Shown piece by piece: positions 8,519-38,079 of a stretch of 64,000 bases of DNA (positions are counted from its first letter, which is position 1; each line of letters starts with the position of its first letter). The notes under the pieces are model-generated. The model worked only from the letters and a program-made list of their open reading frames with translations, searched no databases and was not told the origin of the DNA. The stretch spans positions 1-64,000 of the IMG/VR virus record IMGVR_UViG_3300005614_000040; one strand, given 5' to 3'. A program made the position numbers and the translations under genes. This DNA is from a virus.

Positions 8519-10378
8519 ATGTGGACTAATCTGAAAGCGCCAGTCAAGGCGTTTGTTGTGATCGTAGGGTTGGTAGTGGTGTTCTTTGGACTCCGCTACG
8601 CGACCCGTAACATCAACATCGGCAAGGTGCTGGTGCCAACCAAGTTCAACCTGCCTGACCAGAAGGACGCGCAGGTCCAGAACGTTGTGGCCGCGCCGTA
8701 CCCCAGTTCCGACTGCAGCACCTCTGTCCAAGGCCCCGCGATTCGCGGCGAGCACTGGGAGTGGAACGCTCAAGCCGGGTTTCTTTTGGCGGTGGGCGGC
8801 AACTGCACGACCAAAGATTCCCTGATGGAGAAGCACGGCGTCAACCTGGCTCTCACCCGGCAAGACGACACCAACCAGATGGGCCAGGACTTGCTCAAGT
8901 GTGCGCAGGAAATTCACGACGGCGCGAGCCAGTGCTCAACAGGCGCAAACTTTGTCATCATCATGGGTGACGGTGTACCGCAGTTTGCGGCTGGGCTGAA
9001 TCCGTTGCTCGCGAAGCTTGGCCCGGACTACATCCTGAAGGTTATCGCGGCTGTCGGCTTCTCGCGCGGCGAAGACGGTTTCTGGACAGTTCCACAAGTC
9101 AAAGCCGACCCGCACAGCTTCAACACGGTGTCGAACGGCAACACCACCGGACTGCTGATCGACGGAGTGCTCCGCGACGGCGACTGGAACATCGCCGAAA
9201 AGTGGGCTGGGGATAACAACATCCCGAATAATCCGGACGAAACTACCTACAACAAAGACGCTCTCAACTGGATCAACGCCCCTGACTACATCACAGCGGC
9301 CAAAGACTACATCGCGGGCAAGTGCGAGGATCGCAAAGAAGTAAGCGGCCTTGGCGACAAAGCCAAGTTGACGGGTAACGTTGTGCATGTTTGCGTCAAC
9401 GGTGTGGTGACCTGGACGCCGGGTGACGTAATGATCGCCGAGCAAAAAGGTGGCCTAACTAAAATTGTATCGTCCGAAGAATACCGCAGCCAGATGCCTG
9501 CTGTAATCATCGGCCCGGCGCATTTCTTCAATCAGAATCGCGGTGTCATCACCAACATGCTGCAAGCTGCATTTGAAGGCGCTGACCAGGTGAAGGCGTT
9601 TGACGGCGCGCTGCACAAGGCGTCGGCAATTGCCGCCAAGGTCTATAACGACCAAGGTTGCGACACTTGCTCGAATGGCGACTACTGGTACAAGTACTTC
9701 AAGGGCGTCAAGAAGCCGGACGTGACGGGTCTGCCTGTGAAGCTGGGCGGCTCGGCCGTAAGCAATCTGGCCGACAACCAAGCGCTATTTGGCATGAACG
9801 GCGGCAACGACAACTACCGGAGCGTCTACAACATTTTCGCCGGAGTTGACTTGCAACAGTACCCGAATCTGTTCAAGCCGACTGGCCCCACTCCGCTGCC
9901 GGACGTGAAATCTGTCGAGGACAAATCTTTCATCACAGGTGTGGTGCTGGCTCTGTCGAACTCGGACAGCGGCCCGGGTGCCGACGCCGAAAAAGTGGAC
10001 TACAATTCCGCAGGGACGGGGCAAGTGGTGTCGAAAAAGCCCGCCTATATCAACTTTGCAACAGGCAGCGCCCAACCTTTGCCTGACGGTGAAACCACAC
10101 TGGCCGGGCTAAAAGACCAGATCGCCATCACAGGGCTAAAAGTGAAGGTGGTCGGGTACACTGACAACACGGGTAGCCCGGAGACCAACAAAAATCTTTC
10201 GGCTGCCCGTGCTCAGGAAGTCAAGATTTGGCTGCAGACTCACGCCGGGAAAGAAGTCTTTCCGGACAATCGCTTTGTCGAGGTAGTAGGCAAAGGCCCG
10301 GCCGATCCAATAGCCGACAACTCCACGCCTGCAGGCAAGCAGGCCAACCGCAGGGTCGAGATCACCCTGCTCCAATAG
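8519..10378 (+). CDS. membrane-anchored periplasmic protein: putative ABC substrate-binding-like domain fused to C-terminal OmpA_C peptidoglycan-binding domain
   Basis: The N-terminus is a signal-anchor transmembrane segment. The C-terminus has OmpA_C motifs 'GYTDNTGSPETNKNLSAARAQEV' and 'NRRVEITL'. The substrate-binding assignment rests on position upstream of the permease and ATPase, not on motifs. Confidence 0.65.
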   Translation: MWTNLKAPVKAFVVIVGLVVVFFGLRYATRNINIGKVLVPTKFNLPDQKDAQVQNVVAAPYPSSDCSTSVQGPAIRGEHWEWNAQAGFLLAVGGNCTTKDSLMEKHGVNLALTRQDDTNQMGQDLLKCAQEIHDGASQCSTGANFVIIMGDGVPQFAAGLNPLLAKLGPDYILKVIAAVGFSRGEDGFWTVPQVKADPHSFNTVSNGNTTGLLIDGVLRDGDWNIAEKWAGDNNIPNNPDETTYNKDALNWINAPDYITAAKDYIAGKCEDRKEVSGLGDKAKLTGNVVHVCVNGVVTWTPGDVMIAEQKGGLTKIVSSEEYRSQMPAVIIGPAHFFNQNRGVITNMLQAAFEGADQVKAFDGALHKASAIAAKVYNDQGCDTCSNGDYWYKYFKGVKKPDVTGLPVKLGGSAVSNLADNQALFGMNGGNDNYRSVYNIFAGVDLQQYPNLFKPTGPTPLPDVKSVEDKSFITGVVLALSNSDSGPGADAEKVDYNSAGTGQVVSKKPAYINFATGSAQPLPDGETTLAGLKDQIAITGLKVKVVGYTDNTGSPETNKNLSAARAQEVKIWLQTHAGKEVFPDNRFVEVVGKGPADPIADNSTPAGKQANRRVEITLLQ

Positions 10379-10486
10379 GCGTATGCGTATAGCTATTTTG
10401 CTGATCGGTGCGTTTTTGCTGTTCAACGGACACCCTATTCGCCGGAGGATGGATTATATTCTTCGGCTAGGAGATTGGGAGAAATA

Positions 10487-10666
10487 ATGGAAGCGACGGT
10501 AGGTACAGAAGTCCTAGCTTGTAGCTGTGCCGACTGCCTGCATTGGGAGATCGTGCGCAACGAGCGCGGGGTTCACATCCACTGCAAAACCTGTGAGCAT
10601 CGTTTTCCGGTGGAGTTCTACACCGCTCCACACACCAAGCTGAGTTGGGTCGAACGGGAGGAATAG
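10487..10666 (+). CDS. small Zn-ribbon protein (CSCADC...CKTCEH)
   Basis: A GGGAGA ribosome-binding site is present, and there are four Cys in a CxC...CxxC arrangement. Confidence 0.4.
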   Translation: MEATVGTEVLACSCADCLHWEIVRNERGVHIHCKTCEHRFPVEFYTAPHTKLSWVEREE

Positions 10667-11433
10667 TGCTTGACGCCTTTACTCCAAATCGTAGTCTGGA
10701 TCGCCAGGGCCGGAATACGGTCCTGGGGGTCTGGGTTGTGGTATTCGCTCTGGTGTGGCTGGACCACCCTTCGGTTTTTCTGCCGACGCCTGCTGAGACC
10801 TGGACGGCGCTCACGGATATGTGGCTCTACCGGAACCTCGCCAGCGCCATCTTTGCGTCCGTCCAACTAAACATCGAAGCCATCGCCATAGCCACGGTGA
10901 TTTCTCTTACCCTGGCTTACGCGGGCACCATAGCTTTCTTCCGGCCAATAGTTGTGTTGGCGGGTGCGCTCCGGTTCCTGAGTTTCGCCGGGCTGGGGTT
11001 CGCGTTTACGCTGATGACTTCGACGGGCCACGCGCTCAAAGTCAGCGTTCTCGTTTTCATGGTGGTGGTGTTCTTCGTCGTCTCAATGCTGGATGTGGTC
11101 GATCAAATCCCGCAGGAGAAGTACGACCTGGCTAAGACCCTGCGCATGGGACCGTGGGAGACGTTGTTCGAAGTCGTTATCTTCGGTCAGCTAGACCAAG
11201 CGTTCATCGTCCTACGGCAAACGGCGGCTATGTCGTGGATGTTCATCGCGACGGCCGAAGGACTTTCCATGTCGGGTGGCGGGATTGGAACACTGCTCAA
11301 CACGTCGAACAAATCCCTGGCCCGGCTGCCGGATGTTCTCGCGCTGCAGCTTTTGGTGCTGGTGCTCGGGCTGGGCCAGGACCGACTAATCGGATGGCTG
11401 CGCGAACAATGTTGCCCGTGGGTGAAGAAATGA
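10666..11433 (+). CDS. ABC transporter permease, NitT/TauT (SsuC/TauC/NrtB-like) family
   Basis: The protein has six transmembrane segments, an EAA-like loop 'EKYDLAKTLRMGPWETLFEVVIFGQL' and the motif 'SMSGGGIGTLL'. The start codon is uncertain (TTG at 10645 or GTG at 10666, after a GGGAGGA ribosome-binding site). Confidence 0.75.
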   Translation: MLDAFTPNRSLDRQGRNTVLGVWVVVFALVWLDHPSVFLPTPAETWTALTDMWLYRNLASAIFASVQLNIEAIAIATVISLTLAYAGTIAFFRPIVVLAGALRFLSFAGLGFAFTLMTSTGHALKVSVLVFMVVVFFVVSMLDVVDQIPQEKYDLAKTLRMGPWETLFEVVIFGQLDQAFIVLRQTAAMSWMFIATAEGLSMSGGGIGTLLNTSNKSLARLPDVLALQLLVLVLGLGQDRLIGWLREQCCPWVKK

Positions 11434-11564
11434 TGGTAAACGTGGTTGTAGTTTGCCTGCTTCTTATGGGTGCGGGCCTCGGAATCCTGGTTGGGATGTT
11501 CATCAACGAGTACTTCAACCGTTGGTCGAACAAGCTGTTGGATAGACTGGCAGGGAAGAAATGA
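11433..11564 (+). CDS. 44-aa single-pass membrane peptide, translationally coupled between permease and ATPase
   Basis: Its ATG overlaps the permease TGA in a TGATG arrangement. The peptide 'MMVNVVVVCLLLMGAGLGILVGMF...' is hydrophobic, and its stop overlaps the ATPase start. Confidence 0.35.
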   Translation: MVNVVVVCLLLMGAGLGILVGMFINEYFNRWSNKLLDRLAGKK

Positions 11565-12343
11565 TCTACACCGAAGGTGATGTCCTCCTCCACATCGAAG
11601 ACCTGACCAAAGAGTATGACGGCCATCTCGTGCTCAAGAAGGTCAATGCCGTGATCCGTGATATCCGCGTGCCCGGCCAAACCAAAGGCCAGGTAGTAGG
11701 GTTCATCGGCCCTAGCGGGATCGGCAAGACGACCTGCTGCCGCTGCATGGCGGGGTTCGAAACGCCCACGTCCGGCCGGGTGGTGATGGATGGCCTCGAC
11801 CGACCGATCCGCGCGGGCGAGGTCGGTGTGGTAGCTCAGAACTACCCGCTGTTCGACCACCGCACCGTATTCAGCAACCTGATGCTGGCCGCGCGCAAAT
11901 CCTTCCCCGAGAAGGACGCCCACGACAAGGTCGTAGCTTACCTGGCTGACTTCGGGCTGAGTGAGATCGCCCACAAATATCCTAAAAAAATATCTGGCGG
12001 CCAGCGACAAAGGTGTGCTATAATACAACAAATCCTAGCCAAGCAGCACATCATACTCATGGACGAACCCTTCTCCGGGCTTGATCCAATAGCCAAGAAG
12101 AAGACGGCCGCGCTGATCGACCAAATCGCCGACATGGACGAAATGAACACCATCGTCATTGTCAGCCACGATATCGCCGCTGTAGTGAGTTGCTGTGACC
12201 ACGTTTGGGCGCTCGGCCGCGATCACGACGCGCAGGGCAATGTGATCCCAGGTGCCTACATCGTCGAGAACTACAACCTGATGGACATGGGCGCGGGGCC
12301 GGACGTAGTAAACCTCCTCACTGAAAGGTTCGCAACACTATGA
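11561..12343 (+). CDS. ABC transporter ATP-binding protein (SsuB/TauB/NrtD-like)
   Basis: It has Walker A 'GPSGIGKTT', the ABC signature 'ISGGQRQR' and Walker B 'ILMDEPFSGLD'. Confidence 0.85.
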   Translation: MIYTEGDVLLHIEDLTKEYDGHLVLKKVNAVIRDIRVPGQTKGQVVGFIGPSGIGKTTCCRCMAGFETPTSGRVVMDGLDRPIRAGEVGVVAQNYPLFDHRTVFSNLMLAARKSFPEKDAHDKVVAYLADFGLSEIAHKYPKKISGGQRQRCAIIQQILAKQHIILMDEPFSGLDPIAKKKTAALIDQIADMDEMNTIVIVSHDIAAVVSCCDHVWALGRDHDAQGNVIPGAYIVENYNLMDMGAGPDVVNLLTERFATL

Positions 12344-12416
12344 GTGACAATACCCAAACCGTCCTGCTTGTCTTGATTCTGTGCGTCTTCTACTACTTCG
12401 CGTTCTATCGGGACTA

Positions 12417-12854
12417 ATGAAAGACCTCGACTTTATCCTACGCGTGCTCGGAACGATGGCTGACGCCGACTGCGAGCGCGAACTATCGTGGCGTACAGAC
12501 GGCGAGTTCGCGCCCATCACTTTCTGGATCAACTGCAACGACTTCTTCTGGTGGGGTTGCGCAGACGGCCAAGATTTGGGCGACTGGGAGAGTCTCGACG
12601 TTTTAGACAAAGCCATCGCCGATTGCCGGGCGCTCGACGAAGAACACTGGGGTCCGCTCCTATTCTGCGCCAGGGATCGCGGGATGCGCCCGCAAGGAGC
12701 CTACTACAAACTCATCCCAGAGAAACTTTGGCCGCTGTTTCACGCCTGCGGGCCGGAGCGCGAAGTCGGTTTGGGCAATCCGTCGCACCCGAAGAAAGCC
12801 GAACCCAAGCCCTCCCCTGTTCCGCCCAAGAGATTCTGGCAATTCTGGAAATAA
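12417..12854 (+). CDS. hypothetical protein (Trp/Cys-rich)
   Basis: The ATG lies at 12417 inside a GTG-initiated track ORF, and coding composition is good. Confidence 0.45.
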   Translation: MKDLDFILRVLGTMADADCERELSWRTDGEFAPITFWINCNDFFWWGCADGQDLGDWESLDVLDKAIADCRALDEEHWGPLLFCARDRGMRPQGAYYKLIPEKLWPLFHACGPEREVGLGNPSHPKKAEPKPSPVPPKRFWQFWK

Positions 12855-13781
12855 ATGAACTCCTCCGCGCTCGACTTCCGACCGACAAAATGGGATGAGG
12901 TGATCGGCCACAAGTCTGTGGTCGCGTCCCTTCAAAAGCTCCTCACCCAAGCCACCCCGAGCGCGCTCGGGTTCAGCGGGCCTACGGGCGCGGGCAAGAC
13001 TACTCTGGGGTTGCTCTTTGCTGAGAGTGTAAACGGCGGCCCCGTGCTCGACGTGCAGCACATCAACTGCGCGGATCACAACGGGGTGGATGACGCCAGG
13101 GCGCTCGCCGAGGAAGCCCGGCACCGCCCGCTGATGGGCAAGCGCAAAGTCCGTATTCTGGACGAGTGCCACATGATGACGGCTAACGCGCAGAACGCGT
13201 TGCTCATCCCTATCGAGCCGCCCCGGGGCCAGGAACCAACAACACTTTGGATTTTCTGTACCACTGATCCCGAGGCCGTGATCCCTACGCTGCGCAGCCG
13301 GATGCCGTGGTACGACCTGAAGCCCTTCGGCGAGGAAGATATCCGCGAGCTTTACGACTTTGTATCTGTCCAGAAAATGGACGATTTCCCCGAAGATTTA
13401 TTTCAAGAAGTTTTGCGTAAGCAAGTCACGAACCCACGCGAACTCCTTTACGCCTTCGACAAATTTTCAACGGGTTGCTCGGCGGCTGAAGCAGTCAAGG
13501 GGATCAACGAGGAAGTGGAGTATGTCGAGATCGCGAAGGCCGCGTTGAAGGGTTGGTCAGAAGTAGGACCGCTGCTGAAACAATTGAAGGCTGCGGACGC
13601 CAAGCCCCTGAAGCGTATGCTGGCGAGTTGGATGCGTGTCATCCTCATCAGCACCCCGGCGCGTGCGCAAGCCTGCGCCGAGCTACTTGTCCGCTTGGCC
13701 AGCCAAGATGCTTACGAGGACTCGATATCCTTGGCGGCGACCTGCGCAGATATTTATCTTTTTACGCAAAAGCGCCCTTGA
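12855..13781 (+). CDS. AAA+ clamp loader subunit (DnaX/RFC-like)
   Basis: It has 'FRPTKWDEVIGH', Walker A 'GPTGAGKTT', a DExx box 'ILDECHMMT', sensor 'NALLIPIEPP' and the SRC-like motif 'TLRSRMPWY'. Confidence 0.75.
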   Translation: MNSSALDFRPTKWDEVIGHKSVVASLQKLLTQATPSALGFSGPTGAGKTTLGLLFAESVNGGPVLDVQHINCADHNGVDDARALAEEARHRPLMGKRKVRILDECHMMTANAQNALLIPIEPPRGQEPTTLWIFCTTDPEAVIPTLRSRMPWYDLKPFGEEDIRELYDFVSVQKMDDFPEDLFQEVLRKQVTNPRELLYAFDKFSTGCSAAEAVKGINEEVEYVEIAKAALKGWSEVGPLLKQLKAADAKPLKRMLASWMRVILISTPARAQACAELLVRLASQDAYEDSISLAATCADIYLFTQKRP

Positions 13782-13821
13782 CACTCTCCGGTGTTTATGC
13801 TAGATTGTTTTTACACCGAAA

Positions 13822-14325
13822 ATGAATGTGGATTTAGCTGTAGTCGATGTTGGCGACTTTACCCGTGGCTTATTCCAATACGAACGATTTTTGGCGCAGG
13901 TGCCATATCGACCCGTTGAAGGCTGTTGGGAGTGGACCGGAAAACTTCAGTTTGGGTACGGACACGCCAGGTTTAGAGGTAAGACCGAAGCAGCACACCG
14001 GGTAGCTTGGCGCGTGTTTCGAGGTCCGATTCCCGAAGAATTGAACGTTTTACACCAGTGTGACAACCGCCGCTGTGTCAGACCGGATCATCTTTTCCTT
14101 GGTACACAACTCGACAACATGAGGGATATGTTCGCCAAAGGTCGTCAGCACGACCGCAGCGGTGAAAACTCCGGTCGGGCTAAACTGACTGAATATGCTG
14201 TAAAACAAATACGATTGTGGTACGCAGAGGGAGAAGTTACCAGGGCACAACTTTCCGCGTGGTACGGCGTATCAACCTCAACTATCAACGATATTCTGAA
14301 CCGCAAACTCTGGAACAAAATATAA
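13822..14325 (+). CDS. HNH homing endonuclease
   Basis: Motifs 'CWEWTG...GYGH...HRVAW...HQCDNRRCVRPDHLFLGT..DN' match the HNH_3 family. There is also a C-terminal DNA-binding-like tail. Confidence 0.8.
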   Translation: MNVDLAVVDVGDFTRGLFQYERFLAQVPYRPVEGCWEWTGKLQFGYGHARFRGKTEAAHRVAWRVFRGPIPEELNVLHQCDNRRCVRPDHLFLGTQLDNMRDMFAKGRQHDRSGENSGRAKLTEYAVKQIRLWYAEGEVTRAQLSAWYGVSTSTINDILNRKLWNKI

Positions 14326-14334
14326 AGAGGTAAC

Positions 14335-15219
14335 ATGGAAACCACCGACACCCCGGTAAACACCGGGATTGAGAAGTCGTACGCCTGCGAGACCTACCGT
14401 TATGGGTTGAGTTCTCCGGCCAGCGCGCTGGCTAAGAAAATGGTCTCGGCGATGGGCGACATCGAAGCCGTCACCAAGTCCGGCAAGAACGAAAAACAGG
14501 GCTACAAATACGTCAAGGCCGCCGACGTAGCCAACGAGGTCCGCAGTGTCTTGGTCAAGCACGGGATCGCGTTCTTCTACTCGGTAGAGTCGGTCGAGAA
14601 GTGGGAGGTCGCGACTAATTCAGGCGGACGGATGTTCTTCTGCCAGCTTATCGTCGAGGTAACCTTCGTCGATTCTGACACTGGCGACAGCTTCGCGATC
14701 CAAGGCATTGGCTGGGGCAGCGACACTCTGGACAAGGCCCCTTACAAGGCCATGACTGGCGCGCTCAAGTACATCCTGCGCACCGCGTTCCTGATCCCGG
14801 ACGAGGAAGACCCGGAGAATGACCACTCAAACGCCCCCCGAACGGCCGCCGAGCGCCCCAAGGTCTCCCAGGTGCCCGCCAAGGCTACAGACGCCCCCCG
14901 CCCCGGCCAGCAGAAGCCCGCCGACGCCGCAGCGAGCCAGGCACCCACACCCTCCCCAACCCCGCAGGCCGCTGTAGCTGGCGAGACGGTCCGCGACGCC
15001 GCAGTCAAGAAGGCTCACAACGCCCGGATCAGAACGCTCCAGGAAGCTGTGGCTGACGGCAAGGACCCCGAGACCCACGCCTCGAAGGTCAAGGAATACA
15101 TCATCGTCAACGTCGGCCCTGACTACGTCAAGGCGTCGAAAGAGAAATGGGAGTCCGTCCTGGATGTGATGGACACAGCCCGGACAGCCGGGACGCTGTC
15201 AGAATTGGTAGGTGCATAA
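14335..15219 (+). CDS. erf: ERF-family single-strand annealing protein
   Basis: The segment 'KQGYKYVKAADV...TGALKYILRTAFLIPDEEDPEND' has a pattern shared with P22 Erf. The C-terminus is Pro/Ala-rich. Confidence 0.8.
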   Translation: METTDTPVNTGIEKSYACETYRYGLSSPASALAKKMVSAMGDIEAVTKSGKNEKQGYKYVKAADVANEVRSVLVKHGIAFFYSVESVEKWEVATNSGGRMFFCQLIVEVTFVDSDTGDSFAIQGIGWGSDTLDKAPYKAMTGALKYILRTAFLIPDEEDPENDHSNAPRTAAERPKVSQVPAKATDAPRPGQQKPADAAASQAPTPSPTPQAAVAGETVRDAAVKKAHNARIRTLQEAVADGKDPETHASKVKEYIIVNVGPDYVKASKEKWESVLDVMDTARTAGTLSELVGA

Positions 15220-15608
15220 TGGGCAGACTGAAGGAAGCAAACAAGCAGGAAGAGGTCGTGGGTCGTACGTTGCTGATCTACACCTCAAACGGGGAAGAGA
15301 AGGTCACGCTTCCCGTGGGAGCCAGGGTGACGTTTGGCCCGGCCGTGCCGTTTGAAAAAAAGGACGGCTACGGGCGCTCGCAAAATGAGTATTCGCTGCG
15401 GGTCTACGAGAACGCGCTGAACAACTCGCTGGTCGCCGTATTCAACGGGGTTCGGTCGTTCCGGGATATCGCGATTCCGCACTCGAAGTTGGTGGTTCGC
15501 GAAGCGGGCAAGTCGATGTGGAAGTCCGACGAATCCGGCTACAAGGTCGAGGAGTCGGTTGAACGCGAGAAATTCTGGGATACCCCCCTGAAAGCACTGG
15601 AGGACTAA
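15219..15608 (+). CDS. hypothetical protein
   Basis: The ATG overlaps the erf stop codon (TAATG), indicating coupled translation. Confidence 0.5.
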   Translation: MGRLKEANKQEEVVGRTLLIYTSNGEEKVTLPVGARVTFGPAVPFEKKDGYGRSQNEYSLRVYENALNNSLVAVFNGVRSFRDIAIPHSKLVVREAGKSMWKSDESGYKVEESVEREKFWDTPLKALED

Positions 15609-15973
15609 TGAACGTCAGCATACTCATCGGCCGCCTGGGGCAAGACCCCAAGGTACGGTCAACCAACACAGGCAAGAAGGTGTGTAACTTCACAGTCGCA
15701 ACCGACGACGGCTGGGGTGCCAACAAGAAGACGAACTGGCATAACATCGTCGCCTGGGGTGACCAGTGCGGGCCAATCGAAACCTATCTCTCGAAGGGCA
15801 GCCTGGTGGGGGTCGTTGGCCGCACCGAATACCGCAGCTACGACGCGGACGGCGTGACCAAGTACATCACTGAAATCATCGCCGACCGGGTGGAGTTCCT
15901 GAGCACCAAATCGGAAACAGCGCCCGCCGAAACGACGGATACGGGCATCACAGATGACGACATCCCCTTCTAA
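15608..15973 (+). CDS. ssb: single-stranded DNA-binding protein
   Basis: An OB-fold SSB signature is present: 'MNVSILIGRLGQDPKVR...NWHNIVAWGDQ', with an acidic C-terminal 'DDDIPF' tail. Confidence 0.85.
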   Translation: MNVSILIGRLGQDPKVRSTNTGKKVCNFTVATDDGWGANKKTNWHNIVAWGDQCGPIETYLSKGSLVGVVGRTEYRSYDADGVTKYITEIIADRVEFLSTKSETAPAETTDTGITDDDIPF

Positions 15974-16212
15974 AAATGAACATCAACGTAGCCAACATCG
16001 GCTCTAAGTCTTGCGCTCGCAGAAACACGGCAGCAGTTTCCCCAGCCTGCACGAAGCCTACAGCGTAATCCTCGAAGAAGTGAGCTTTGGGACCTGGTGC
16101 GGCTGAAGAAACGCGACCGGGACCCTATTGCCGTTGAAACTGAACTGATCCAGATTGCTGCGATGGCAATCAAAGCTTTGCACTCGCTCGACAATTTTAC
16201 CGGAGGTGAAGT

Positions 16213-16434
16213 ATGACACCCAACGAAGCTAAAGCTATCCTGAGCACGCGTTCTCCCGAGGAACTGAAACGGATGGACGATATCATGGGTTCCGCGTTCG
16301 TTTTGTACGTTGAGCACACCGAGAACCTTACCCGCGACGCCGCAATGCTACGCGTAGCCGAACTCTGCACCGCGCTTGATATGTACCTGGAGGATAAAGA
16401 AAATGACGCTAACGGAAAACCCCTCGATGCCTGA
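16213..16434 (+). CDS. hypothetical protein
   Basis: A GGAGG ribosome-binding site is followed by ATG, and the ORF is 73 aa. Confidence 0.4.
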   Translation: MTPNEAKAILSTRSPEELKRMDDIMGSAFVLYVEHTENLTRDAAMLRVAELCTALDMYLEDKENDANGKPLDA

Positions 16435-16612
16435 AACCCTCTACGTCACCCACGAGGAAGACGGTGGCGACGGGGGTTGGTTCAACGCTCACTCGAACAC
16501 CGACGACATTGCCTGCGGTATGCGACCGGGCGACACCCAAGTCGTAGCTGAGTACCGTCTGGTCGGCAAGCGCGTGCTCGGGATCGTCGCATCTCTCACC
16601 CCGGTGGAGTAA
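16403..16612 (+). CDS. hypothetical protein
   Basis: An internal ATG is preceded by a GGAGGA ribosome-binding site, and the ORF ends 1 nt before the next gene. Confidence 0.4.
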   Translation: MTLTENPSMPETLYVTHEEDGGDGGWFNAHSNTDDIACGMRPGDTQVVAEYRLVGKRVLGIVASLTPVE

Positions 16613-17778
16613 TGGCTCACTATCTGTACGAAAATGCGAACGGTCGCCGCGTCAACACTCACTCGTACAGCGGCGGCAGTTCCTTTAATGAGTGCGCGCG
16701 TAAATATCGCTACCAGCGGTTAGACGGCTGGCGTGAGAAAGCCGTGCGCGCGGCAATGGAGTTCGGCAACGCGTGGGAAGCAGCCATCCAGACCTATCAC
16801 AAAGACATGGATTTGGCTGCAGCGCGGGCCGAGTGGCGCAAAGGCTGGACGGCGGCCAAGAGCTTGGAACTCGCCTATAAGGATTCAGAATCTTGGAGCG
16901 AGATGTTCAAGCAGGGCGACGAACTCCTGCGGCTCTACGCTATCCGCTTGCCCGACCTGCCGATTGTCAACCCTCGCTTCCAACTGAATTTCAAGAAGGA
17001 AGTTTTCCCCGACAGCGAATACTCGGGGATCGAAGATACCTCGTTCATCGACATGCTGGTGGAGGCTGGCCCAGCCCAACATTTATTGTTGCCGCCCGTC
17101 AAATCCAGAGAGCCGCGCCCGTTGCTGATCGATATCAAGACTTCGGGCAAGCCGTATCCTGTGGACGCCCGGATGCTCCGGCTCGATCCACAGCTAAGAC
17201 GATACTCCTGGACGACAGGGGTCGAAACGGTCGCCTTTCTCGTCGGGGTAAAGAACCCCCGCAGTCTGGATCGCGGTCACTACGTCACGCTGTTGACCAA
17301 CACGATCCAAGGCAAAGCAGGCGAGATTTTTGTGGTGTTCGAGGACGCGTCGGACGAATTCGACCTGCGTGTTATTCTCTTGACCGAAAGTCAGTACGGG
17401 GCCTACCTCGACGCTCAGAAAGGCGTACGCGGTAAAGCTCTGGTGAGTCTGAAAGAGAAGTGGGCCGAAGACGGCTTTGTCGTCAATGGGGCTGACGTTA
17501 CCCGCCAGCAAATTCAGTTTCTCGCTACCGTCATCACCCAGCAGGAACGCGACGAAACAGGCGAAGCGGTTGGCCGCGAGGTTTTGGAAATATGCGCGTC
17601 GAACCAGGATGGTTTCTGGCCGCAGCGCCCCGGCGTTCGCTTCCCCAACAACCACTGCGCGTGGTGTCCTTTTCTCGGGTTGTGCATCGATGACAACACC
17701 CGAGTCAAGGACAAGCTCATCAACATCACTACGTCACCCGCTCCGGCGCGTGACTGGCTCGACGTAATGGAGGAATAA
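16612..17778 (+). CDS. Cas4-like / RecB-family PD-(D/E)XK exonuclease with Fe-S cysteines
   Basis: The arrangement is an N-terminal Cys ('NECARKY') plus a C-terminal 'CAWCPFLGLC' cluster. A PD-(D/E)XK core is seen in 'LLIDIKTSGK'. Confidence 0.75.
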   Translation: MAHYLYENANGRRVNTHSYSGGSSFNECARKYRYQRLDGWREKAVRAAMEFGNAWEAAIQTYHKDMDLAAARAEWRKGWTAAKSLELAYKDSESWSEMFKQGDELLRLYAIRLPDLPIVNPRFQLNFKKEVFPDSEYSGIEDTSFIDMLVEAGPAQHLLLPPVKSREPRPLLIDIKTSGKPYPVDARMLRLDPQLRRYSWTTGVETVAFLVGVKNPRSLDRGHYVTLLTNTIQGKAGEIFVVFEDASDEFDLRVILLTESQYGAYLDAQKGVRGKALVSLKEKWAEDGFVVNGADVTRQQIQFLATVITQQERDETGEAVGREVLEICASNQDGFWPQRPGVRFPNNHCAWCPFLGLCIDDNTRVKDKLINITTSPAPARDWLDVMEE

Positions 17779-31808: not shown

Positions 31809-31832
31809 AAAGCCCCCTTTCGGGGGCTTTTT
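31809..31832. terminator. bidirectional rho-independent terminator between convergent arms
   Basis: The sequence aaagccccc-tttc-gggggcttt forms a 9-bp GC stem. T-runs lie on both strands, and it overlaps the stop codon of the giant minus-strand gene. Confidence 0.6.
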
Positions 31833-34800
31833 ACTGCTCTGAGGCGGCTGGTTCCTGCCACATCTGCCGGATGCGGAGGAAGGTCGGGTCTTTCGCCCGT
31901 TCCTCCGGACTCATGTCCTTATACGCCTTTTGCATGTAGCGCTTCTTCTTTCCCGTCATCACCTTGGTCATGGCTGTACGCTCGCGCGGGGTAGCCAACT
32001 CCCACACCTGGAGAGCGTCGGCCATATCCATGCGGTTGACGGTCGAGACCATGCGCGCCGTCTGCGGGTCCATCCCGGCCGTCATCTTCACGTTGTCCTT
32101 GATCTTCTTGATCTCGTCGTGCGGAAGAGTCGAGAAGTCTTTCAGGTCTTCGAGTTGACTGAAGGTCATTCGGCCGGAGCGCAAATCATCCTCAAACCGG
32201 GATACTGCCTGGAGGCGCGACCGCTGGGTCGAGGTCATCAGGCCGGATTCGTTCTTCTCGGAGGCGAGCTTGGCCGCCAAGGTCTGAGCCTGAGTCCGGT
32301 ACACGTCCGCCGTCAAACCACCCGCTTTGGCAAGTTGGCCCGCGTTGGTGATGTTGGTATTGCCCGAGATCGCGGACGCCACGGCCTGCGCCGGGATCGG
32401 GGCCATGTTGCTGGCCAGGTCAACCCAAAGGCTTCCAGGAGAGAGCTTGCGGCCGTATACGTCCTGGCCTGTCACAGCCTCCTGGCCCATGCGCGCGAGC
32501 GGCGACAGCCGACCCTTCATAAACCCTTCGGGGTCGGACGCCATGTGGAGGATGTCGGTCGGCATGGTACGGATCGAATAGATCACGTCCTGGCCGTTCT
32601 TGTCCTTGGTGGCTACGCCGAACGGAGCTTCGAGGTGAGGGTTGCCGCTGTTGACCATGTTGAGCACGCGCGCCGCACCCCAAAGTCCGGCTGCCATGAG
32701 CAAGACCTGGTTACGGGCGAAGTTCTTGTCGCCGAGGCCGCCGCGTAGCGTAGAAGCTGCAAACCGCATTTCCGATTCGAGCCAGTCCGGAGCGAGCGCA
32801 AACAACCGGAACCAGTCCTGCGTTGCTGCAGCCCGGCCCATTGCCCGCCAGTTCTGTCCACCGAAGGCGTTGTTGACGTGCTCGGCCGCTGCCGATGCGA
32901 CGGCGCGCGGTTCCCAATCCGGGTGGGCCGCTGCATACTTGTCGTACATCTTGAGAGCGGCGTCGGCCTTGAGCGAAGGCATGTAGCGGTTGAACAGAAA
33001 GTCCTGGTACCAATCCATCGTCTTGCCGAGGATGGGGATTTTGGCCAGGATTTTGCTGTGAGACGCGAGACCTTCCGAGTGCTCGGACAGCGCCCGGCGA
33101 TCCATCGCGAAGGTCGCACCCTGGATGGCCATGCTGCGCAGCTTGCGAGCGCGGTCGAGTTCCGTCTGGGCTGCCTGCAAATTCTGGGCGTGCTCGGGCG
33201 AGTTCGGATTGGAGCTTGCTTCCTTCTGGGCGTCGTTAACCGCCTGCCTCAAACGGCCAATGGCCTCTTGAGTGAAGCTGTCTACTGGGTGAACCTTGAG
33301 CGGGTTGACTCCCAGCATGACGCCACGGAGAGCTTCCTGCATCATGTGGAACGGGCTGAGCGAGAGCAAGACGCTCTTGGCTTCGCTGCCAGCGGCGAGC
33401 AACGGCTTGGTGATCCGGCCAAAGCCTTCGTTCTTGGTCAGCGGGGATTCGTCGAGACCCAGCGCGTTCGTGAGGTATGGCGCGTACTCCGGGTGGATCG
33501 CGATCTCACCTTGCACAAACACAGGGTTGCCAGCCGCGTCCTTCGCTACCCAGTGGATGCCAGGCAGGTACTTGGGCGGGGTGACGTAACCTTGCGGGTG
33601 CCACACGTATGCGGGCGTCTGGGCGTCGTTGATCTTCTGGAGGGCGTCCTTGGGCAAGACTCCGCTCTGAACGTCCTTCAACGTCCGGAGGTGTTCCTTG
33701 AGTTGTGGGTACTTTGTGTTGGTCGCGGCGTCGCGCACCTGGGCGACGTGGCGCGCGCTGAAGCTGTCGGCAGCCTGAATCCACTTTCCGTTCGGGCCTT
33801 GGAAGGCTTGCTTCGACCAATAGGAGCGCAGGTCAGCGGGCATCACCGATCCATTTTGTGGAACTGTCTGGTTCGCGGTATGGGTCCGGCCGTACGAATC
33901 GATTAGTTCGTCGATGAAGGAGTTGAAGGCTTCTTTGCCAGCGCCTCCTTGAGCGCCGTTCCCCCCTTCTTGTACGCCTCGAACAGTTCCTCGATTCTGG
34001 AGTTGCTTGGATACGCTATCTTTTTCATGGGCTACAAATTCCTCTCTTAGTTTGCGTGCAGTGCCGATTACGCGAGTCAGGGTTTTGAACGCGTCGCTGC
34101 CGTGCCGTTCTTCAACCGCAGCAAAGTACTTCCGCAGCCAGGACTCTTCTTCGTCCGGCGTCACTCCCATTGTATCGCGGTCGCCCGCCATCAGTTTGGC
34201 CGCCGTTTCAACGACACGAGTAACGGGGTCGGACTCGTATTCGTTGTGGGTCAAGTAGACTTGGGCTGCGCCGGGAATCTGCTGGTCGAGATCATGCCAC
34301 TGCGCGCCGTACAGGTGGCGGCCAACCGTTCCGTCCGGCGAGACCTCGGACTGCCAAGCGTGGTTAATTTCTTCCCGCGCCGTTCGGGTCAGATAACTTA
34401 GGCTACGGCCTTGCCCGCCGATCACAGTCACAGGCCGACCCTCTGCATCTCTCGCCGCTTCCGCGACAAGCTGGCGGAGTCCGGAACCAACGTTCTTTGC
34501 GAGGGTGGACTGGCCTACCGTGTATCTACGCTCGATGTCTCCGAGCAAGCGCGGAACCTCACTTGGCTCCAAACTGACGCCTTCAAGTGCAGCCCGTCCA
34601 TACGGATTGAGGATGTGGCTCAGCAACGTCATCGCCGAGCGCGAAAGCCACAGTATCTTGTGGCCGGACGCGTCCGCGCGAACTTCACCGACTTTCGGTG
34701 AATCAAGGTTGTCGAGACTATCCTTTGCGATTCTGAGACGCGTCACGGTGTCTGGGTCACCGGGGCGCTGTTCGTTGAGCTTGCTGAGTTGCTGAACGCG

Positions 34801-37800
34801 TTCGCTTAACGCCAACCGCGTTTGGGCTAACTCATCGCTGTCCGGACGGTCAACGCTCAGAACTACTTTTCGGTAGTTCCCGAGTTTGGTACCCTCTGGA
34901 TTATCTTGGATACCCCGTCCTCGGGTTGAACGTGATTCATTGTTACGCCGTTGGGCAGCTTCACGGAGGACAGAATCGTAGGTGGCTTTTGGCCCGGGCG
35001 GACCAGACGTTTGTGAGTGCTCGTATAGATGTTCTCCGTATCCGTAGGCGTAGTCAAAGGGGTCTTGGGCGAAGTACTCATGGAGTTTAGATAACCTTTC
35101 TTGACCCGCTTTGGACCTGGGGTCAGTGTCTATAATGTGGACAAACGAGCCGTCCGGATGCTGCTCTATTGTAGCACCATCGACGCCTGCTTTTCTCAGC
35201 CATTGGACAGCCTTGGCCGTGTCCATACCACTCAAGTGGATGGTGTACTGGACGTGCGGGCCAGTGGCGTCGTTGTGCCAGAGCAAAACTGACTTCTGAT
35301 TTTCTGCCTTGCCGCGCAGGGCCGCAGCGGTGCGCAGGTCGAGGAGGTCGCCCTTGCCTTCAGAAACCAGCGAAGGCTCTCCGTCTGTTCCGCCGCCCCC
35401 GTGACTCCAGATGCCTGTAGCCTGCTTATACTGCAGGTCTAGGCCGTACTTCTTGTCGATGTTGGCCGCGCGGGTCATCGCCTGCTTGACCTCGGGACTG
35501 TTGGCCTGGGCGATGGCCTGCTCTAAGTTGAGGTCGGCCTGGTTCGAGGACGCGAAGATTTGTCCTTCAACCTGGTTGCGCACCGGGGCTGGGGCGGGGT
35601 TGGCCGCCTGGCGCAACAGGTTTGCGATGTCCTTGTCGGTGTACGGACGTGTGCCGTCACCCGTCAACCCTTGGGCGTGGTTGCGGAACTTGGCGACGTA
35701 GCGGTCGAGATCAGCCTGTTCAGTCTTGGTGCGAACTTCCTTCGACGCAATCAACTGCACCCAACCCGGAACGTTCAGGTTGCGCGGGATCGGCTCGCCT
35801 TTGTCGATGGCGTCCTGCAGACTTTCGACCACCCGGTTCGAGTAGTCGGTCAGGAACTCGTGGGTCTCGTCGAGCGCCCGGCGTGATCCGGCCTGGTCAA
35901 GAATGTTCGGGTTCCGTTGTTCGTGCGCCTCGATTTCTTTCTGGATATTTTGTACCCACTCGGTAATGTTGGTGGGGTTGACGCGCGGGGTCACATCGCG
36001 AACCGCGCCCGAGCGCAAGTGGCGTTCGAGCATCCCGCTCGCAATCATGTTCTTTACATCGTTGGCCGCGATGCTGATGCTCTGAAGCTGGTTGGGGAGA
36101 ACCAGGATGTTGGGGTCTCCGCCGTTGCGCGCCGCGAGAGTGTCGCCTGCGCCCCGCAGGACCGCCGCTGGCAAGCCGTCAGACCCGCGCACGCCCGCCG
36201 CGCGAATGGCCTTGAACCAGTTCACGTTGGCCGCGATAGTACGCAGGCTCTCGACACCGTATCCGGTAAGCTGGACAGGGTCGTCAGTCAAGAGTTCATG
36301 GCCGCGCATCAGACCTTCGAAGATCGATCCGTAAACGCGGTGCATCGCCTGGGTTGCCTTCAGGTCGAATCTGCCGGAGCGGACCTCGTTGCGCCACGCA
36401 CCGACAGCCTTGTCAGCGTTCTCTCCAAATACACGCTGGATGTAGTTATCGACGTAGGAGTGGATCACCCCGGCCTTCGCCGCAGCGGTCCAGTTTTCGT
36501 CATTCACCTTGCGGAACTTATCGACCAGCGCGAGTTCGTCAGGTGACAACCCTTGGGCGACCTTGTGATACGCCTCGGCCCAATCCAAAAGCTGTTGCTT
36601 GCCTTTTTCGGTCAAGCCCTCGTCACCGCGACGGATGAGTTCCTGAAGGTCGTCCGGCAGTCCTGGGTGCTGGCCCGCGCCCGTCGTAGACTCTCCCGGC
36701 ATCGGAGATGGGAGTTCAGCGCCCTGCACGTTCGGGCCTTCGTTCGGCACCGGGGCGAGTTCCGGCCGGGACGCGGTGGCCGCGTCGTAGGGCAGGATTT
36801 TGTCCAGCATCCCGAACCGTTGATAGATCGAGTTACCTGCTTGGCGGGCCTTCTCTGTGTCGGCTACACCTGTGTCGAGGGCGGCCGTTACCCAGCGCTT
36901 CGCCTTGGTGCGAGCTTCAATGGCTTCCTTGCCCTCAAACTGAGCGGCGAGGTTCTTCGCGCCAGCCGCAAACAAATTACCGTAGTACTCGGGCTTGCCA
37001 AGCTCACCGTTCAGAGTGTTCTCGACGTTGCGAGCTTCGTTGGCCGCAGATTCAATATCACCGTCGCGAACCGCTGTGATCGCACGAACCTTCTGTGCTT
37101 CCTGGGTCGGAGCAAGACGCTCGACTTCATTGACCGCAGGCATGAACTCCCCGGCTTTCGCCAGGGTGTATTTGATACCAAGCAGACCGAGTCCGCCGCT
37201 GAGGATGGCTTCGGTCAGCTTCTCGTTAGCGCCGTCGTAGTTGCCTTCCTTCCAATCGTCGAGCACGCCCGGGAACATATGCGCAGCCTGGTAAACTTGG
37301 GGCGCAGCGAAACCAAAGTTGATCGCCGCTTCCATGCCCTTGGCTACCTTCTGTGCCTGGGCCGGGGTGGTATCGCCGATGGCGCGGAACGCCTTCGACA
37401 TCGCGCGCTCAGCGAGATTACCACCAACGAAGTCGGACTGCGCGGTGAGGTCCGCGTCGTGCAGGTAGGTGTTCAGTGCGAGGTAGCGGTTGTAGTCCAT
37501 ACCGCTGTCTGCTACAGCCTGGGCGATTGGCTTGCCCGCGCGCTGGGCGTCCGTGGCCGCCTTGATCGCTTTTCCGAACTGTCCGATCTGGGCGTCGGCC
37601 GCAGCCGCATCTAGGCCCTCTGCGCCGCCCATGAGGGTGTCGCGGAGAACACTGGCCCCGGCTGATTCAATCAAGCTGCCTTCACCAAACGTGAGCGCGC
37701 CTAGCCCCAAAGAAAGAGGCGAGGTCAAACCAGTCAGGAACTTCTCGACGCCGCGCTCGATACCACCAGCGCCCGGCCGCGAGTCGTGCCAACCCAACAC

Positions 37801-38079
37801 CGACTCAGTCAACGGTGTGTTGACGCCCTCCCAGAGTTTCTGGTACCAAGGCGCGTTCGGGTCTTCGATAGACGCAGGTGCGCCCCCACCCAAAGGCGGA
37901 GGCGCAGGGGTGCCGACCCGGTACTGAGCGAACTGGTCAGCAGGCGGAGTTGGGGTTGCCGGGGTTGAAGCCGGGGCTGCACTCTGGCCAGCAGGCTTTA
38001 CCGCGTACTGAGCAAACGGGTCGGCTGGAGCGGGAGTGGCAGTGGAACGGTACTGTGCAAACGGATCGTCTTGCGCCAT
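31831..38079 (-). CDS. giant virion-associated protein (2082 aa); T7 gp16-like internal core/ejection protein by position
   Basis: A single clean ORF carries no recognised catalytic motifs. It is the last gene of the structural operon, after gp14- and gp15-like Q/A-rich proteins. Confidence 0.6.
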   Translation of the reverse strand: MAQDDPFAQYRSTATPAPADPFAQYAVKPAGQSAAPASTPATPTPPADQFAQYRVGTPAPPPLGGGAPASIEDPNAPWYQKLWEGVNTPLTESVLGWHDSRPGAGGIERGVEKFLTGLTSPLSLGLGALTFGEGSLIESAGASVLRDTLMGGAEGLDAAAADAQIGQFGKAIKAATDAQRAGKPIAQAVADSGMDYNRYLALNTYLHDADLTAQSDFVGGNLAERAMSKAFRAIGDTTPAQAQKVAKGMEAAINFGFAAPQVYQAAHMFPGVLDDWKEGNYDGANEKLTEAILSGGLGLLGIKYTLAKAGEFMPAVNEVERLAPTQEAQKVRAITAVRDGDIESAANEARNVENTLNGELGKPEYYGNLFAAGAKNLAAQFEGKEAIEARTKAKRWVTAALDTGVADTEKARQAGNSIYQRFGMLDKILPYDAATASRPELAPVPNEGPNVQGAELPSPMPGESTTGAGQHPGLPDDLQELIRRGDEGLTEKGKQQLLDWAEAYHKVAQGLSPDELALVDKFRKVNDENWTAAAKAGVIHSYVDNYIQRVFGENADKAVGAWRNEVRSGRFDLKATQAMHRVYGSIFEGLMRGHELLTDDPVQLTGYGVESLRTIAANVNWFKAIRAAGVRGSDGLPAAVLRGAGDTLAARNGGDPNILVLPNQLQSISIAANDVKNMIASGMLERHLRSGAVRDVTPRVNPTNITEWVQNIQKEIEAHEQRNPNILDQAGSRRALDETHEFLTDYSNRVVESLQDAIDKGEPIPRNLNVPGWVQLIASKEVRTKTEQADLDRYVAKFRNHAQGLTGDGTRPYTDKDIANLLRQAANPAPAPVRNQVEGQIFASSNQADLNLEQAIAQANSPEVKQAMTRAANIDKKYGLDLQYKQATGIWSHGGGGTDGEPSLVSEGKGDLLDLRTAAALRGKAENQKSVLLWHNDATGPHVQYTIHLSGMDTAKAVQWLRKAGVDGATIEQHPDGSFVHIIDTDPRSKAGQERLSKLHEYFAQDPFDYAYGYGEHLYEHSQTSGPPGPKATYDSVLREAAQRRNNESRSTRGRGIQDNPEGTKLGNYRKVVLSVDRPDSDELAQTRLALSERVQQLSKLNEQRPGDPDTVTRLRIAKDSLDNLDSPKVGEVRADASGHKILWLSRSAMTLLSHILNPYGRAALEGVSLEPSEVPRLLGDIERRYTVGQSTLAKNVGSGLRQLVAEAARDAEGRPVTVIGGQGRSLSYLTRTAREEINHAWQSEVSPDGTVGRHLYGAQWHDLDQQIPGAAQVYLTHNEYESDPVTRVVETAAKLMAGDRDTMGVTPDEEESWLRKYFAAVEERHGSDAFKTLTRVIGTARKLREEFVAHEKDSVSKQLQNRGTVRGVQEGGNGAQGGAGKEAFNSFIDELIDSYGRTHTANQTVPQNGSVMPADLRSYWSKQAFQGPNGKWIQAADSFSARHVAQVRDAATNTKYPQLKEHLRTLKDVQSGVLPKDALQKINDAQTPAYVWHPQGYVTPPKYLPGIHWVAKDAAGNPVFVQGEIAIHPEYAPYLTNALGLDESPLTKNEGFGRITKPLLAAGSEAKSVLLSLSPFHMMQEALRGVMLGVNPLKVHPVDSFTQEAIGRLRQAVNDAQKEASSNPNSPEHAQNLQAAQTELDRARKLRSMAIQGATFAMDRRALSEHSEGLASHSKILAKIPILGKTMDWYQDFLFNRYMPSLKADAALKMYDKYAAAHPDWEPRAVASAAAEHVNNAFGGQNWRAMGRAAATQDWFRLFALAPDWLESEMRFAASTLRGGLGDKNFARNQVLLMAAGLWGAARVLNMVNSGNPHLEAPFGVATKDKNGQDVIYSIRTMPTDILHMASDPEGFMKGRLSPLARMGQEAVTGQDVYGRKLSPGSLWVDLASNMAPIPAQAVASAISGNTNITNAGQLAKAGGLTADVYRTQAQTLAAKLASEKNESGLMTSTQRSRLQAVSRFEDDLRSGRMTFSQLEDLKDFSTLPHDEIKKIKDNVKMTAGMDPQTARMVSTVNRMDMADALQVWELATPRERTAMTKVMTGKKKRYMQKAYKDMSPEERAKDPTFLRIRQMWQEPAASEQ

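Follow-up and report, generated by a model that had tools for sequence, protein, structure and literature searches.

A predicted ABC importer with an OmpA-fused solute-binding protein and a probable PspA-like partner as recurrent cargo of large soil phages

Why should a bacteriophage carry a complete ABC importer, and why should the binding protein of this importer end in a peptidoglycan-binding domain? This question is raised by a stretch of 64,000 nucleotides, positions 1 to 64,000 of the IMG/VR virus record IMGVR_UViG_3300005614_000040 (the whole stretch is called the window here). The original prediction, made from the letters alone, had placed three transporter genes at positions 8519-12343: a solute-binding protein (SBP) fused to an OmpA domain, a permease and an ATPase. 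In our view, which we hold with a probability of roughly 55%, the locus encodes a functional importer for a small solute, with an SBP tethered to both the membrane and the cell wall and with a PspA-like and a coiled-coil protein as partners, that the phage carries as host-derived cargo. The trio of transporter genes proved to be right, its limits were drawn too narrowly: two genes upstream, p197 and p362, and a zinc-ribbon gene in the gap between SBP and permease belong to the same unit. We compared the positions of the open reading frames (ORFs) with the public gene calls for the same 74,477-bp metagenomic contig, and these agree with all ORFs at the coordinates given here, including the five that had been described originally (8519-10378, the permease, 11433-11564, 11561-12343 and 12340-12417). 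The cassette and the tiny ORFs within and next to it are the following:

6818-7411, + strand: p197, a coiled-coil protein and the first gene of the conserved cassette (public call of 197 amino acids (aa) from ATG 6818; alternatively listed as p219, a 219-aa ORF from GTG 6752)
7413-8501, + strand: p362, transmembrane (TM) hairpin and long cytoplasmic helical hairpin, probably a distant PspA/IM30-like protein (ESCRT-III superfamily)
8519-10378, + strand: SBP-OmpA protein, 619 aa (ORF, Pfam, AlphaFold model, Foldseek)
10487-10666, + strand: zinc-ribbon protein, 59 aa (family hidden Markov model (HMM) and public gene call)
10666-11433, + strand: ABC permease, 255 aa from GTG 10666 (262 aa from TTG 10645), predicted type I importer transmembrane domain (TMD) of the NrtB/CmpB lineage
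11433-11564, + strand: 43-aa hydrophobic ORF, lineage-specific
11561-12343, + strand: ABC ATPase, 260 aa, catalytic motifs intact
12340-12417, + strand: 25-aa TM peptide, kept in a sister phage

The cassette, in the order coiled-coil protein, TM-anchored PspA-like protein, SBP-OmpA, zinc ribbon, permease and ATPase, lies in a tight co-directional gene array that occupies the + strand from position 3 to ~31.6 kb, and the GC content is even across the region. For the permease, the start at GTG 10666 is more likely than that at TTG 10645.

The 619-aa protein is the part of the system that can be read best. Its AlphaFold2 model was built on a 32-sequence family alignment (mean predicted local distance difference test score (pLDDT) 89, predicted template modelling score 0.85) and has an N-terminal hydrophobic helix (residues 7-30), a disordered linker (30-55), a two-lobed alpha/beta domain (~60-480), a short linker and the OmpA domain (503-619). 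The OmpA domain is recognized at the sequence level: Pfam PF00691 matches residues 513-611 (E=4e-14, 53.2 bits at a gathering threshold of 27.2), the domain was detected in 32/32 family members, and its top matches in NCBIfam and the PDB are YiaD, PA0833, TagL and MotB-type domains. The strings GYTDNTGS and NRRVEITL, by which the tail had first been recognized, are present in the translation, and the description of the protein as signal anchor, periplasmic domain and OmpA_C tail was confirmed. D549 (in GYTDNTG) and R564 (in NxxLSxxRA) are invariant in the alignment; we take them to be equivalent to the Asp and Arg that contact peptidoglycan diaminopimelate in the A. baumannii OmpA-peptide structures 3td3-3td5. 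For the middle domain of ~420 aa, sequence searches returned no match in Pfam, NCBIfam or the PDB, even with the 32-sequence profile, which found only OmpA domains in the PDB. The structure was more telling: Foldseek aligned the domain over 415-457 columns with NrtA, TauA, CmpA and SsuA of the PDB at E-values from 6e-9 to 1e-6 (NrtA 2g29, E=6e-9; TauA 6ssy, target-normalised template modelling score 0.71; CmpA 2i49, 0.64), and further matches were ThiY-type proteins and the NrtA-like regulatory domains of NrtC and CmpC (9uak, 8wm7). As judged from the model, residues ~60-480 form a type-II SBP fold of the NMT1/NrtA/TauA class, which agrees with the periplasmic binding domain originally proposed; this likeness to NMT1/SsuA-type families is one of predicted structure and not of sequence.

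The conservation pattern gives a hint at the ligand. The window protein keeps all residues that are invariant in the family, including N610-R612 of the OmpA domain and the cysteines C128, C139, C269 and C292. In the SBP domain, alignment and model place the invariant residues (W80, W82, R114-Q115-D116-D117, G150-D151, S182-R183-G184-E185-D186, D222-W223, N237-N238 and W299-T300-P301/D303) at the C-terminal ends of beta-strands, the position at which type-II SBPs bind their ligands. As most of these residues carry acidic, aromatic or amide side chains (many Asp, Trp and Asn, but only two Arg), they weakly suggest that the ligand is conserved and specific and probably no simple anion, i.e. a cationic, zwitterionic or polar compound rather than nitrate or sulfonate. 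Moreover, the pocket residues of NrtA and CmpA are not conserved in the phage SBP, and the substrate is therefore probably different from theirs.

The permease and the ATPase complete the transporter. When a 23-sequence permease profile was compared with 177,635 distinct PDB sequences, it matched only CmpB (9u9z, 4e-9) and NrtB (8w9m, 1e-8), and the family consensus contains an EAA-type coupling loop, 'IPKExFDLARTLRMGEWRVVxEVVVLG'. The NCBIfam matches, ntrB (1e-8; 35 bits at a cut-off of 209) and SaoP (5e-7), are far under the cut-offs, and a Pfam scan had no match on the window permease and a weak BPD_transp_1 match on a homolog only. These profiles place the permease with the type I importer TMDs, in the lineage of NrtB and CmpB. 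In the ATPase, every expected motif is present (GPSGIGKT, the Q-loop VAQNYPLF, ISGGQRQR, IILMDEP and SHD), and the protein matches Pfam ABC_tran (5.1e-25) and phrog_293 (1.2e-53). Its best relatives are generic importer nucleotide-binding domains (GlcV, PotA, CysA), with NrtD and CmpD present but not at the top, and it reaches 106 bits against NCBIfam ntrCD at a cut-off of 292. The NitT/TauT signatures that had been reported for both proteins were thus recovered for the permease but not for the ATPase, and neither protein passes a curated family cut-off. Such scores fit a deep sister lineage rather than a member of a substrate-defined subfamily. Since the SBP, permease and ATPase genes are all present and intact, we regard the predicted transporter as a complete importer by its components, as originally claimed, of type I and of a deep lineage beside NitT/TauT and outside the substrate-defined subfamilies.

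The gene directly upstream of the SBP gene may link the importer to membrane maintenance. Two N-terminal hydrophobic segments of p362 are predicted to form a TM hairpin (~27-73), and in the model they are followed by a long helical hairpin (105-169 / 175-264, pLDDT >90) and another long helix. The family is large (970 clusters at 50% identity, E<=1e-3) and has no Pfam annotation. Several observations bring it close to PspA. The commonest sub-threshold Pfam match is PF04012 (PspA_IM30), found in 17 of 76 family members with a best E-value of 4e-5, while the next family is found in 4; three of these members share one register, in which residue ~93 falls on position 22-23 of PF04012 and the match extends to 148-209 of 220. 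An hhalign comparison of the family with E. coli PspA places the near-invariant 'DPIG(I/M)L' on 'EDPQKLV' of helix 1 (a short, weak match, E=0.025), and Vipp1 and PspA chains predominate in the Foldseek top list. Taken together, it is rather likely that p362 is a membrane-anchored PspA/IM30-like protein of the ESCRT-III superfamily. Its neighbour p197 is a cytoplasmic protein whose N-terminus is Pro-rich and whose C-terminal part is a coiled coil; it matches no Pfam family beyond generic coiled coils, and the p219 profile found only coiled-coil noise among the PDB sequences. When PspA homologs were sought on plasmids, almost all were enterobacterial copies that are ~93% identical.

The element that carries the cassette is a phage, as had been supposed. 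The window encodes a DNA polymerase (phrog_17, 1e-108), a primase/helicase, exonucleases, a DNA methyltransferase, a major head protein (phrog_1357, 3.9e-14) and a sliding-clamp-like processivity factor; a clamp loader, an HNH endonuclease, ERF, SSB and a tyrosine integrase are found in the window or contig. Three neighbours of the cassette are important for the following discussion:

2919-3953, + strand: tyrosine recombinase, 344 aa, Pfam Phage_integrase (public gene calls)
4312-6738, + strand: homolog of MVP, the major vault protein of eukaryotes, 808 aa, directly upstream of the cassette
12855-13781: clamp-loader subunit (DNA_pol3_delta2), an AAA gene adjoining the cassette

On one flank of the cassette lie the genes for DNA polymerase, integrase and MVP, on the opposite flank those for clamp loader, HNH, ERF and SSB, and all of these genes share a strand with the cassette. 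The integrase gene lies between the DNA polymerase and MVP genes, ~0.4 kb upstream of the latter and ~2.9 kb upstream of the first cassette gene, and such a tyrosine recombinase implies that the phage is temperate or integrates. In a sister contig of different sample origin (L132), the genes follow each other as in the window: MVP, p216, p362, SBP-OmpA, zinc ribbon, permease, ATPase, clamp loader, ERF and SSB. Between the two phages, the ratios of nonsynonymous to synonymous substitution rates (dN/dS) are 0.07-0.25 for the cassette genes, with dS near saturation, values similar to those of the clamp loader (0.14) and ERF (0.09), and p362 is the best conserved gene of the block (88% amino-acid identity). 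The cassette genes are under purifying selection in this lineage, and the cassette is host-derived cargo carried inside a phage genome. L132 also has two copies of a DUF8296 gene (1735-2094 and 3842-4201) that flank its p216/p362 pair; none is present there in the window.

How widespread is this arrangement? GTDB species genomes yielded 344 confirmed loci in a pattern-limited scan. The best 80 were analysed; they belong mostly to the Acidobacteriota (Terriglobales, Ca. Sulfotelmatobacter, gp2, Thermoanaerobaculia), with Myxococcota and a few others besides. The bacterial homologs are 57-66% identical to the window proteins. In bacterial loci, five genes stand in a fixed block, one of ~226 aa, one of ~353-375 aa and those for SBP-OmpA, permease and ATPase, and the same block is present in the window. 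The SBP-OmpA family as such is large: among the matches listed, 120/120 were full length with 54-74% identity, some of them on megabase contigs. In IMG/VR, 44 contigs carry the cassette, many of them of 100-530 kb, flanked by genes for DNA ligase, helicases, HNH endonucleases, NAMPT, thymidylate synthase (ThyA) and RNA ligase. The SBP-OmpA/permease/ATPase trio was found in every locus with enough contig on the relevant side (117-119 of 129), the p362 family HMM matched 40/44 viral and 53/80 genome loci, and the p197/p219 family HMM matched 35/44 and 52/80, respectively. Among the GenBank phages (50,697 records), a full-length SBP-OmpA homolog is present only in the 462-kb uncultured huge phage LR756500.1, alongside p362-like, permease and ATPase genes; the DNA of window positions 8000-13000 had no match among GenBank phages.

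Some copies are interrupted. In L130, a 157-kb phage contig (JGI 3300072492), the order p368, SBP-OmpA, permease and ATPase is kept at 7715-16887, with 3-5 small phage ORFs between successive cassette genes, including those for a DUF7693 protein and an Rv2179c-like exonuclease. Insertions of 0.5-1.7 kb between cassette genes in several IMG/VR loci resemble this case. In a neighbour-joining tree of the three concatenated transporter proteins, for which the genomes were limited to the 80 best matches, the viral copies are long-branched and spread throughout, and bacterial clades are nested between them; the window falls together with the phages L132 and L130 and with the cellular contigs L133 and L005. 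This topology suggests repeated exchange of the cassette between phages and hosts. Many Thermoanaerobaculia-type loci differ in gene order, and one of them (L113) has an unrelated 354-aa protein at the p362-like position; this gene was considered as a counterpart of p362 and is not detectably related to it.

The fusion of an SBP to OmpA had been regarded as unusual. This view has to be given up: with 344 GTDB loci it belongs to a large family, and the operon type is already catalogued, though uncharacterised. In their survey, Ravi et al. 2024 (mSystems, PMC11237479) described experimentally uncharacterised 'PBPB+OmpA + permease + ABC-ATPase' operons linked to PspA and TM-Snf7, and proposed a link between membrane remodelling and solute transport. 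Their example from Ca. Handelsmanbacteria (OGG56892.1) reads PspA -> SIG+PBPB+OmpA -> TM(s) -> ABC-ATPase -> SIG+TM+Snf7 -> AAA+. The phage cassette shares with it the SBP-OmpA protein, a multi-TM permease, an ABC ATPase, a probably divergent membrane-anchored PspA/Snf7-type protein and a second coiled-coil protein, and window positions 6818-12343, like most related loci fetched, hold the co-oriented gene set of this operon type. It differs in gene order, in the extra zinc ribbon and in its location on a phage. By the list of parts, p362 and p197 may be the counterparts of 'TM+Snf7' and 'PspA' of the catalogued operon; the idea that p219 is this 'PspA' was rejected, as hhalign comparisons with PspA and with p362 were not significant. 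Finally, the catalogued operon has a two-domain (inactive + active) classical AAA+ ATPase that the phage cassette lacks; no such gene lies inside or beside the cassette in the window, L001-L005 or L130-L133. Full-text literature searches found no paper on phage-borne copies of the cassette or on SBP-OmpA fusions as such.

Among well-studied systems, three groups resemble individual parts. (i) NrtABCD and CmpABCD (TC 3.A.1.16) provide the closest solved SBP folds and the sole PDB profile matches for the permease, yet the phage SBP domain shares only ~10% identity with NrtA and CmpA, with no family match at the sequence level. NrtA and CmpA are anchored in the membrane as lipoproteins and not via a TM helix and OmpA, and an NrtC-type ATPase with a regulatory SBP-like domain is a feature of the Nrt/Cmp systems that the phage cassette does not share. 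(ii) TauABC and SsuABC (TC 3.A.1.17) have the same three components with one permease and one ATPase gene, and TauA gave the highest target-normalised score in the structural comparison. Here the difference is in the binding protein: TauA and SsuA are soluble periplasmic proteins of ~300 aa, whereas the phage domain of ~420 aa has insertions and is predicted to be tethered on both sides, and no similarity to TauA and SsuA can be detected at the sequence level. (iii) MotB/PomB, TssL/TagL and YiaD combine an N-terminal membrane anchor with a C-terminal OmpA-like domain that has the conserved Asp/Arg. Between these two elements, the phage protein has a complete predicted solute-binding domain, and its partners are ABC transporter subunits rather than stator or secretion components. 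As far as phage genes are concerned, the 'ABC transporter' families phrog_293 and phrog_2392 are likewise host-derived transport genes, and the cyanophage PstS is a phage-encoded ABC transporter component used as an auxiliary metabolic gene. The difference is that three transporter components and two or three accessory genes here form one cassette; PHROG matches were obtained for the ATPase and the OmpA tail only, with a weak one for the permease and none for the SBP domain.

Building on the folds, motifs, synteny, constraint and phage context described so far, we infer the topology, stoichiometry, transport direction, physical coupling of p362 and benefit for the phage as follows. The SBP would reside in the periplasm; its N-terminal helix would fix it to the inner membrane and its OmpA domain, non-covalently, to the peptidoglycan. 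It would capture a specific small solute and pass it to a permease homodimer, and an ATPase homodimer would power the import. The PspA-like p362 would be anchored by its TM hairpin with the helical hairpin in the cytoplasm; together with its coiled-coil partner, it may work on the same patch of membrane from the cytoplasmic face and stabilise or remodel the membrane or regulate the transporter. The cassette would be expressed with the early/replication genes of the phage and could so sustain uptake and envelope function in the infected or lysogenised cell.

Several observations weigh against this idea. For the PspA assignment, no score reaches a curated or conventional cut-off: the three p362 members that share a register score 12.9-17.5 bits at a PF04012 threshold of 33.9, the Pfam scan of the window p362 itself had no PF04012 match, and the p362 family profile found only coiled-coil noise among the PDB sequences. 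For the binding function, none of the 32 family members matched an SBP family (NMT1/NMT1_2/SsuA-type models) even at E<=1. For the coupling of importer and p362, the genome loci without p362 and p219 form, besides a few truncated contigs, a separate clade of Thermoanaerobaculia, Holophagales and Myxococcota; the trio exists in this second bacterial clade without recognisable p362/p219, and the coupling is thus not universal. Moreover, the bacterial copies have no conserved catabolic genes as neighbours, and a promoter/terminator scan was at background level. Finally, that the host belongs to the Acidobacteriota is probable on the basis of the nearest homologs only.

The strongest competitor holds that the locus is not primarily an importer but an envelope-spanning machine for membrane maintenance or signalling. 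The SBP-like domain would sense a periplasmic or peptidoglycan-derived cue, the ABC engine would transduce it, and a PspA/ESCRT-III-like polymer would stabilise or remodel the inner membrane; with it, the phage might keep the membrane intact and the proton-motive force up until lysis, or construct membrane structures. Such a machine would draw on the linkage with a TM-anchored PspA-like protein, on the tethering of the SBP to membrane and peptidoglycan that resembles MotB-type anchors, and on the SBP-like domains that act as regulatory modules in NrtC and CmpC (9uak, 8wm7). The MVP shoulder domain is a relative of SPFH/band-7 domains. A homolog of MVP with such a shoulder adjoins the cassette in this lineage, band-7 domain proteins have been reported as PspA partners (PMC11237479), and the proposed connection of membrane remodelling and transport (Ravi et al., PMC11237479) points in the same direction. 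Against this stand the sub-threshold homology to PspA, the lack of the AAA+ ATPase of the catalogued operon and, above all, the permease, which has an EAA-like loop and looks like a canonical TMD of type I importers. We know of type I importer TMDs only from importers. It is possible but rather unlikely that an ABC engine with a peptidoglycan-tethered sensor is coupled to an ESCRT-III/PspA-type polymer, by which large soil phages, often MVP-encoding, stabilise or reshape the inner membrane of the host.

Somewhat less probable still is a plain auxiliary metabolic gene set: a self-sufficient importer of the nitrate, bicarbonate, sulfonate or taurine type that boosts phage replication, with the coiled-coil genes and the OmpA tail being incidental. 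This would be in line with the nearest solved relatives, NrtA/CmpA/TauA for the SBP and NrtB/CmpB for the permease, with the location among replication and nucleotide-metabolism genes, and with the bacterial clade that has the trio without recognisable p362. What speaks against it is p362 itself, which is found with the trio in those 40/44 viral loci and, when the sister phages are compared, is better conserved than any other gene of the block. In addition, the proteins have no place in a substrate-defined family at the sequence level, all NCBIfam scores being far under the cut-offs, and the invariant residues at pocket positions are mostly acidic or aromatic, unlike those of the anion-binding NrtA or SsuA. 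The original view of the locus as an auxiliary-metabolic-gene-type feature therefore survives as far as phage-borne, host-derived cargo is concerned, but not as simple nutrient uptake, which disregards the PspA-like partner.

That the cassette is bacterial DNA, brought in by mis-assembly or as the host flank of a prophage, is very improbable: close homologs do exist in bacterial chromosomes and an integrase gene lies ~0.4 kb upstream of the MVP gene, but the cassette is embedded among phage genes of the same strand whose stops and starts overlap, its gene order recurs in the independent contig L132 from another sample, the GC content is even, and the cassette recurs in 44 IMG/VR contigs and in the huge phage LR756500.1. 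The least tenable idea, also raised originally, is that the 619-aa protein is only a MotB/Pal/YiaD-like periplasmic anchor, for which OmpA as the only domain detectable by sequence and the MotB-like combination of N-terminal TM helix and C-terminal OmpA could be cited; it is refuted by the two-lobed alpha/beta domain of the pLDDT 89 model, which matches NrtA, TauA, CmpA and SsuA over 415-457 columns, and by the constant position of the gene beside those for permease and ATPase.

With the tethered importer as the preferred reading, the new aspects are that the complete cassette, including the probable PspA-like gene, is a recurrent and selectively maintained cargo of large soil phages, that the viral copies often have an extra zinc-ribbon gene, and that the cassette lies directly downstream of a full-length MVP homolog in this lineage. 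In many large soil phages, a published 462-kb huge phage among them, the whole cassette is maintained under purifying selection, and its function is therefore probably valuable during infection or lysogeny. Acidobacteriota are dominant, hard-to-culture soil bacteria, and with the cassette we see an envelope system of this group that is widespread, conserved and experimentally untouched. It unites ABC import, peptidoglycan anchoring and a putative PspA/ESCRT-III-like membrane protein, which are normally studied apart, and offers an entry point to the role of PspA-type proteins together with transporters. It also illustrates that phage cargo genes can be multi-component membrane machines and not only single enzymes. 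In practical terms, it provides a defined set of testable parts: the SBP domain, the OmpA domain and p362.

The small ORFs of the region have different standings. The 59-aa zinc-ribbon protein (CxCxxCxHWE ... CxTC) is encoded within the apparent 266-bp gap between the SBP-OmpA and permease genes, and its stop overlaps the permease start (TAGTG). Its HMM found eight loci (the window, L006, L011, L013, L020, L037, L132 and L133), nearly all of them viral, and 0/80 GTDB loci; in every locus in which the position was compared, the gene lies inside or directly beside the cassette. It is an accessory gene, mostly of viral cassette copies. The two tiny membrane peptides had been proposed as translationally coupled accessory subunits. 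The overlaps of stops and starts are real (TAGTG 10664-10668, TGATG 11431-11435, ATGA 11561-11564 and 12340-12343), but they continue into unrelated downstream genes, e.g. TAATG at 12415-12419. Translational coupling is therefore a trait of the whole phage gene array and provides no evidence that the tiny ORFs are transporter subunits. The 43-aa ORF has no homolog in the fetched loci L001-L134, and in L132 an unrelated 65-aa soluble ORF stands in its place. The 25-aa hydrophobic peptide is kept in L132 at 8380-8457 (25/26 aa; MSDNTETVLIILIMAAFYYFAFYRTK in the sister phage, MSDNTQTVLLVLILCVFYYFAFYRD as the peptide common to both sister phages), where a 109-aa gene stands between it and the ATPase gene, and it is absent from all other fetched loci. 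Its conservation between the sister phages suggests that it is probably a real micro-gene of the phage lineage, unrelated to the transporter. Neither of the two peptides is a subunit of the cassette.

The MVP homolog upstream of the cassette is a full-length protein: Pfam detects MVP_shoulder (4.6e-22) and Vault_3 (4.3e-10), and phmmer aligns residues 435-784 with rat and human MVP (1e-12). The bacterial/viral MVP-like family had 6,125 matches, with members on the phage-like contigs L135-L139 and in LR756500.1 (462 kb) and LR756501.1/LR756503.1 (735 kb), which are huge phages of GenBank. Several contigs hold both an MVP homolog and the SBP-OmpA cassette, with the MVP gene farther from the cassette. 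We considered MVP as a general neighbour of the cassette and rejected this, as no MVP gene was present within +/-10 kb in 129 loci; a single-sequence scan of IMG/VR did not find MVP. The adjacency is specific to this phage lineage, and a functional link is unproven. Full-text searches brought up no publication on an MVP encoded by phages. In the 894,233-bp contig L137 (JGI 3300035696), ~22 kb round the MVP homolog contain small co-directional ORFs, nearly all without a Pfam match, and this stretch looks phage-like; the contig may stem from a very large phage or from a chromosome rich in prophages. The SBP-OmpA homolog P0059 is listed with a contig of equal length (894,233 bp) and may lie on L137.

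A tRNA scan of the window found none. One further feature stands out beyond the co-directional array:

31831-38079, - strand: 2,082-aa ORF without PHROG match

This ORF is followed by several ORFs of 600-900 aa without a family match, and together they presumably encode the tail or host-recognition proteins of an undescribed phage group.

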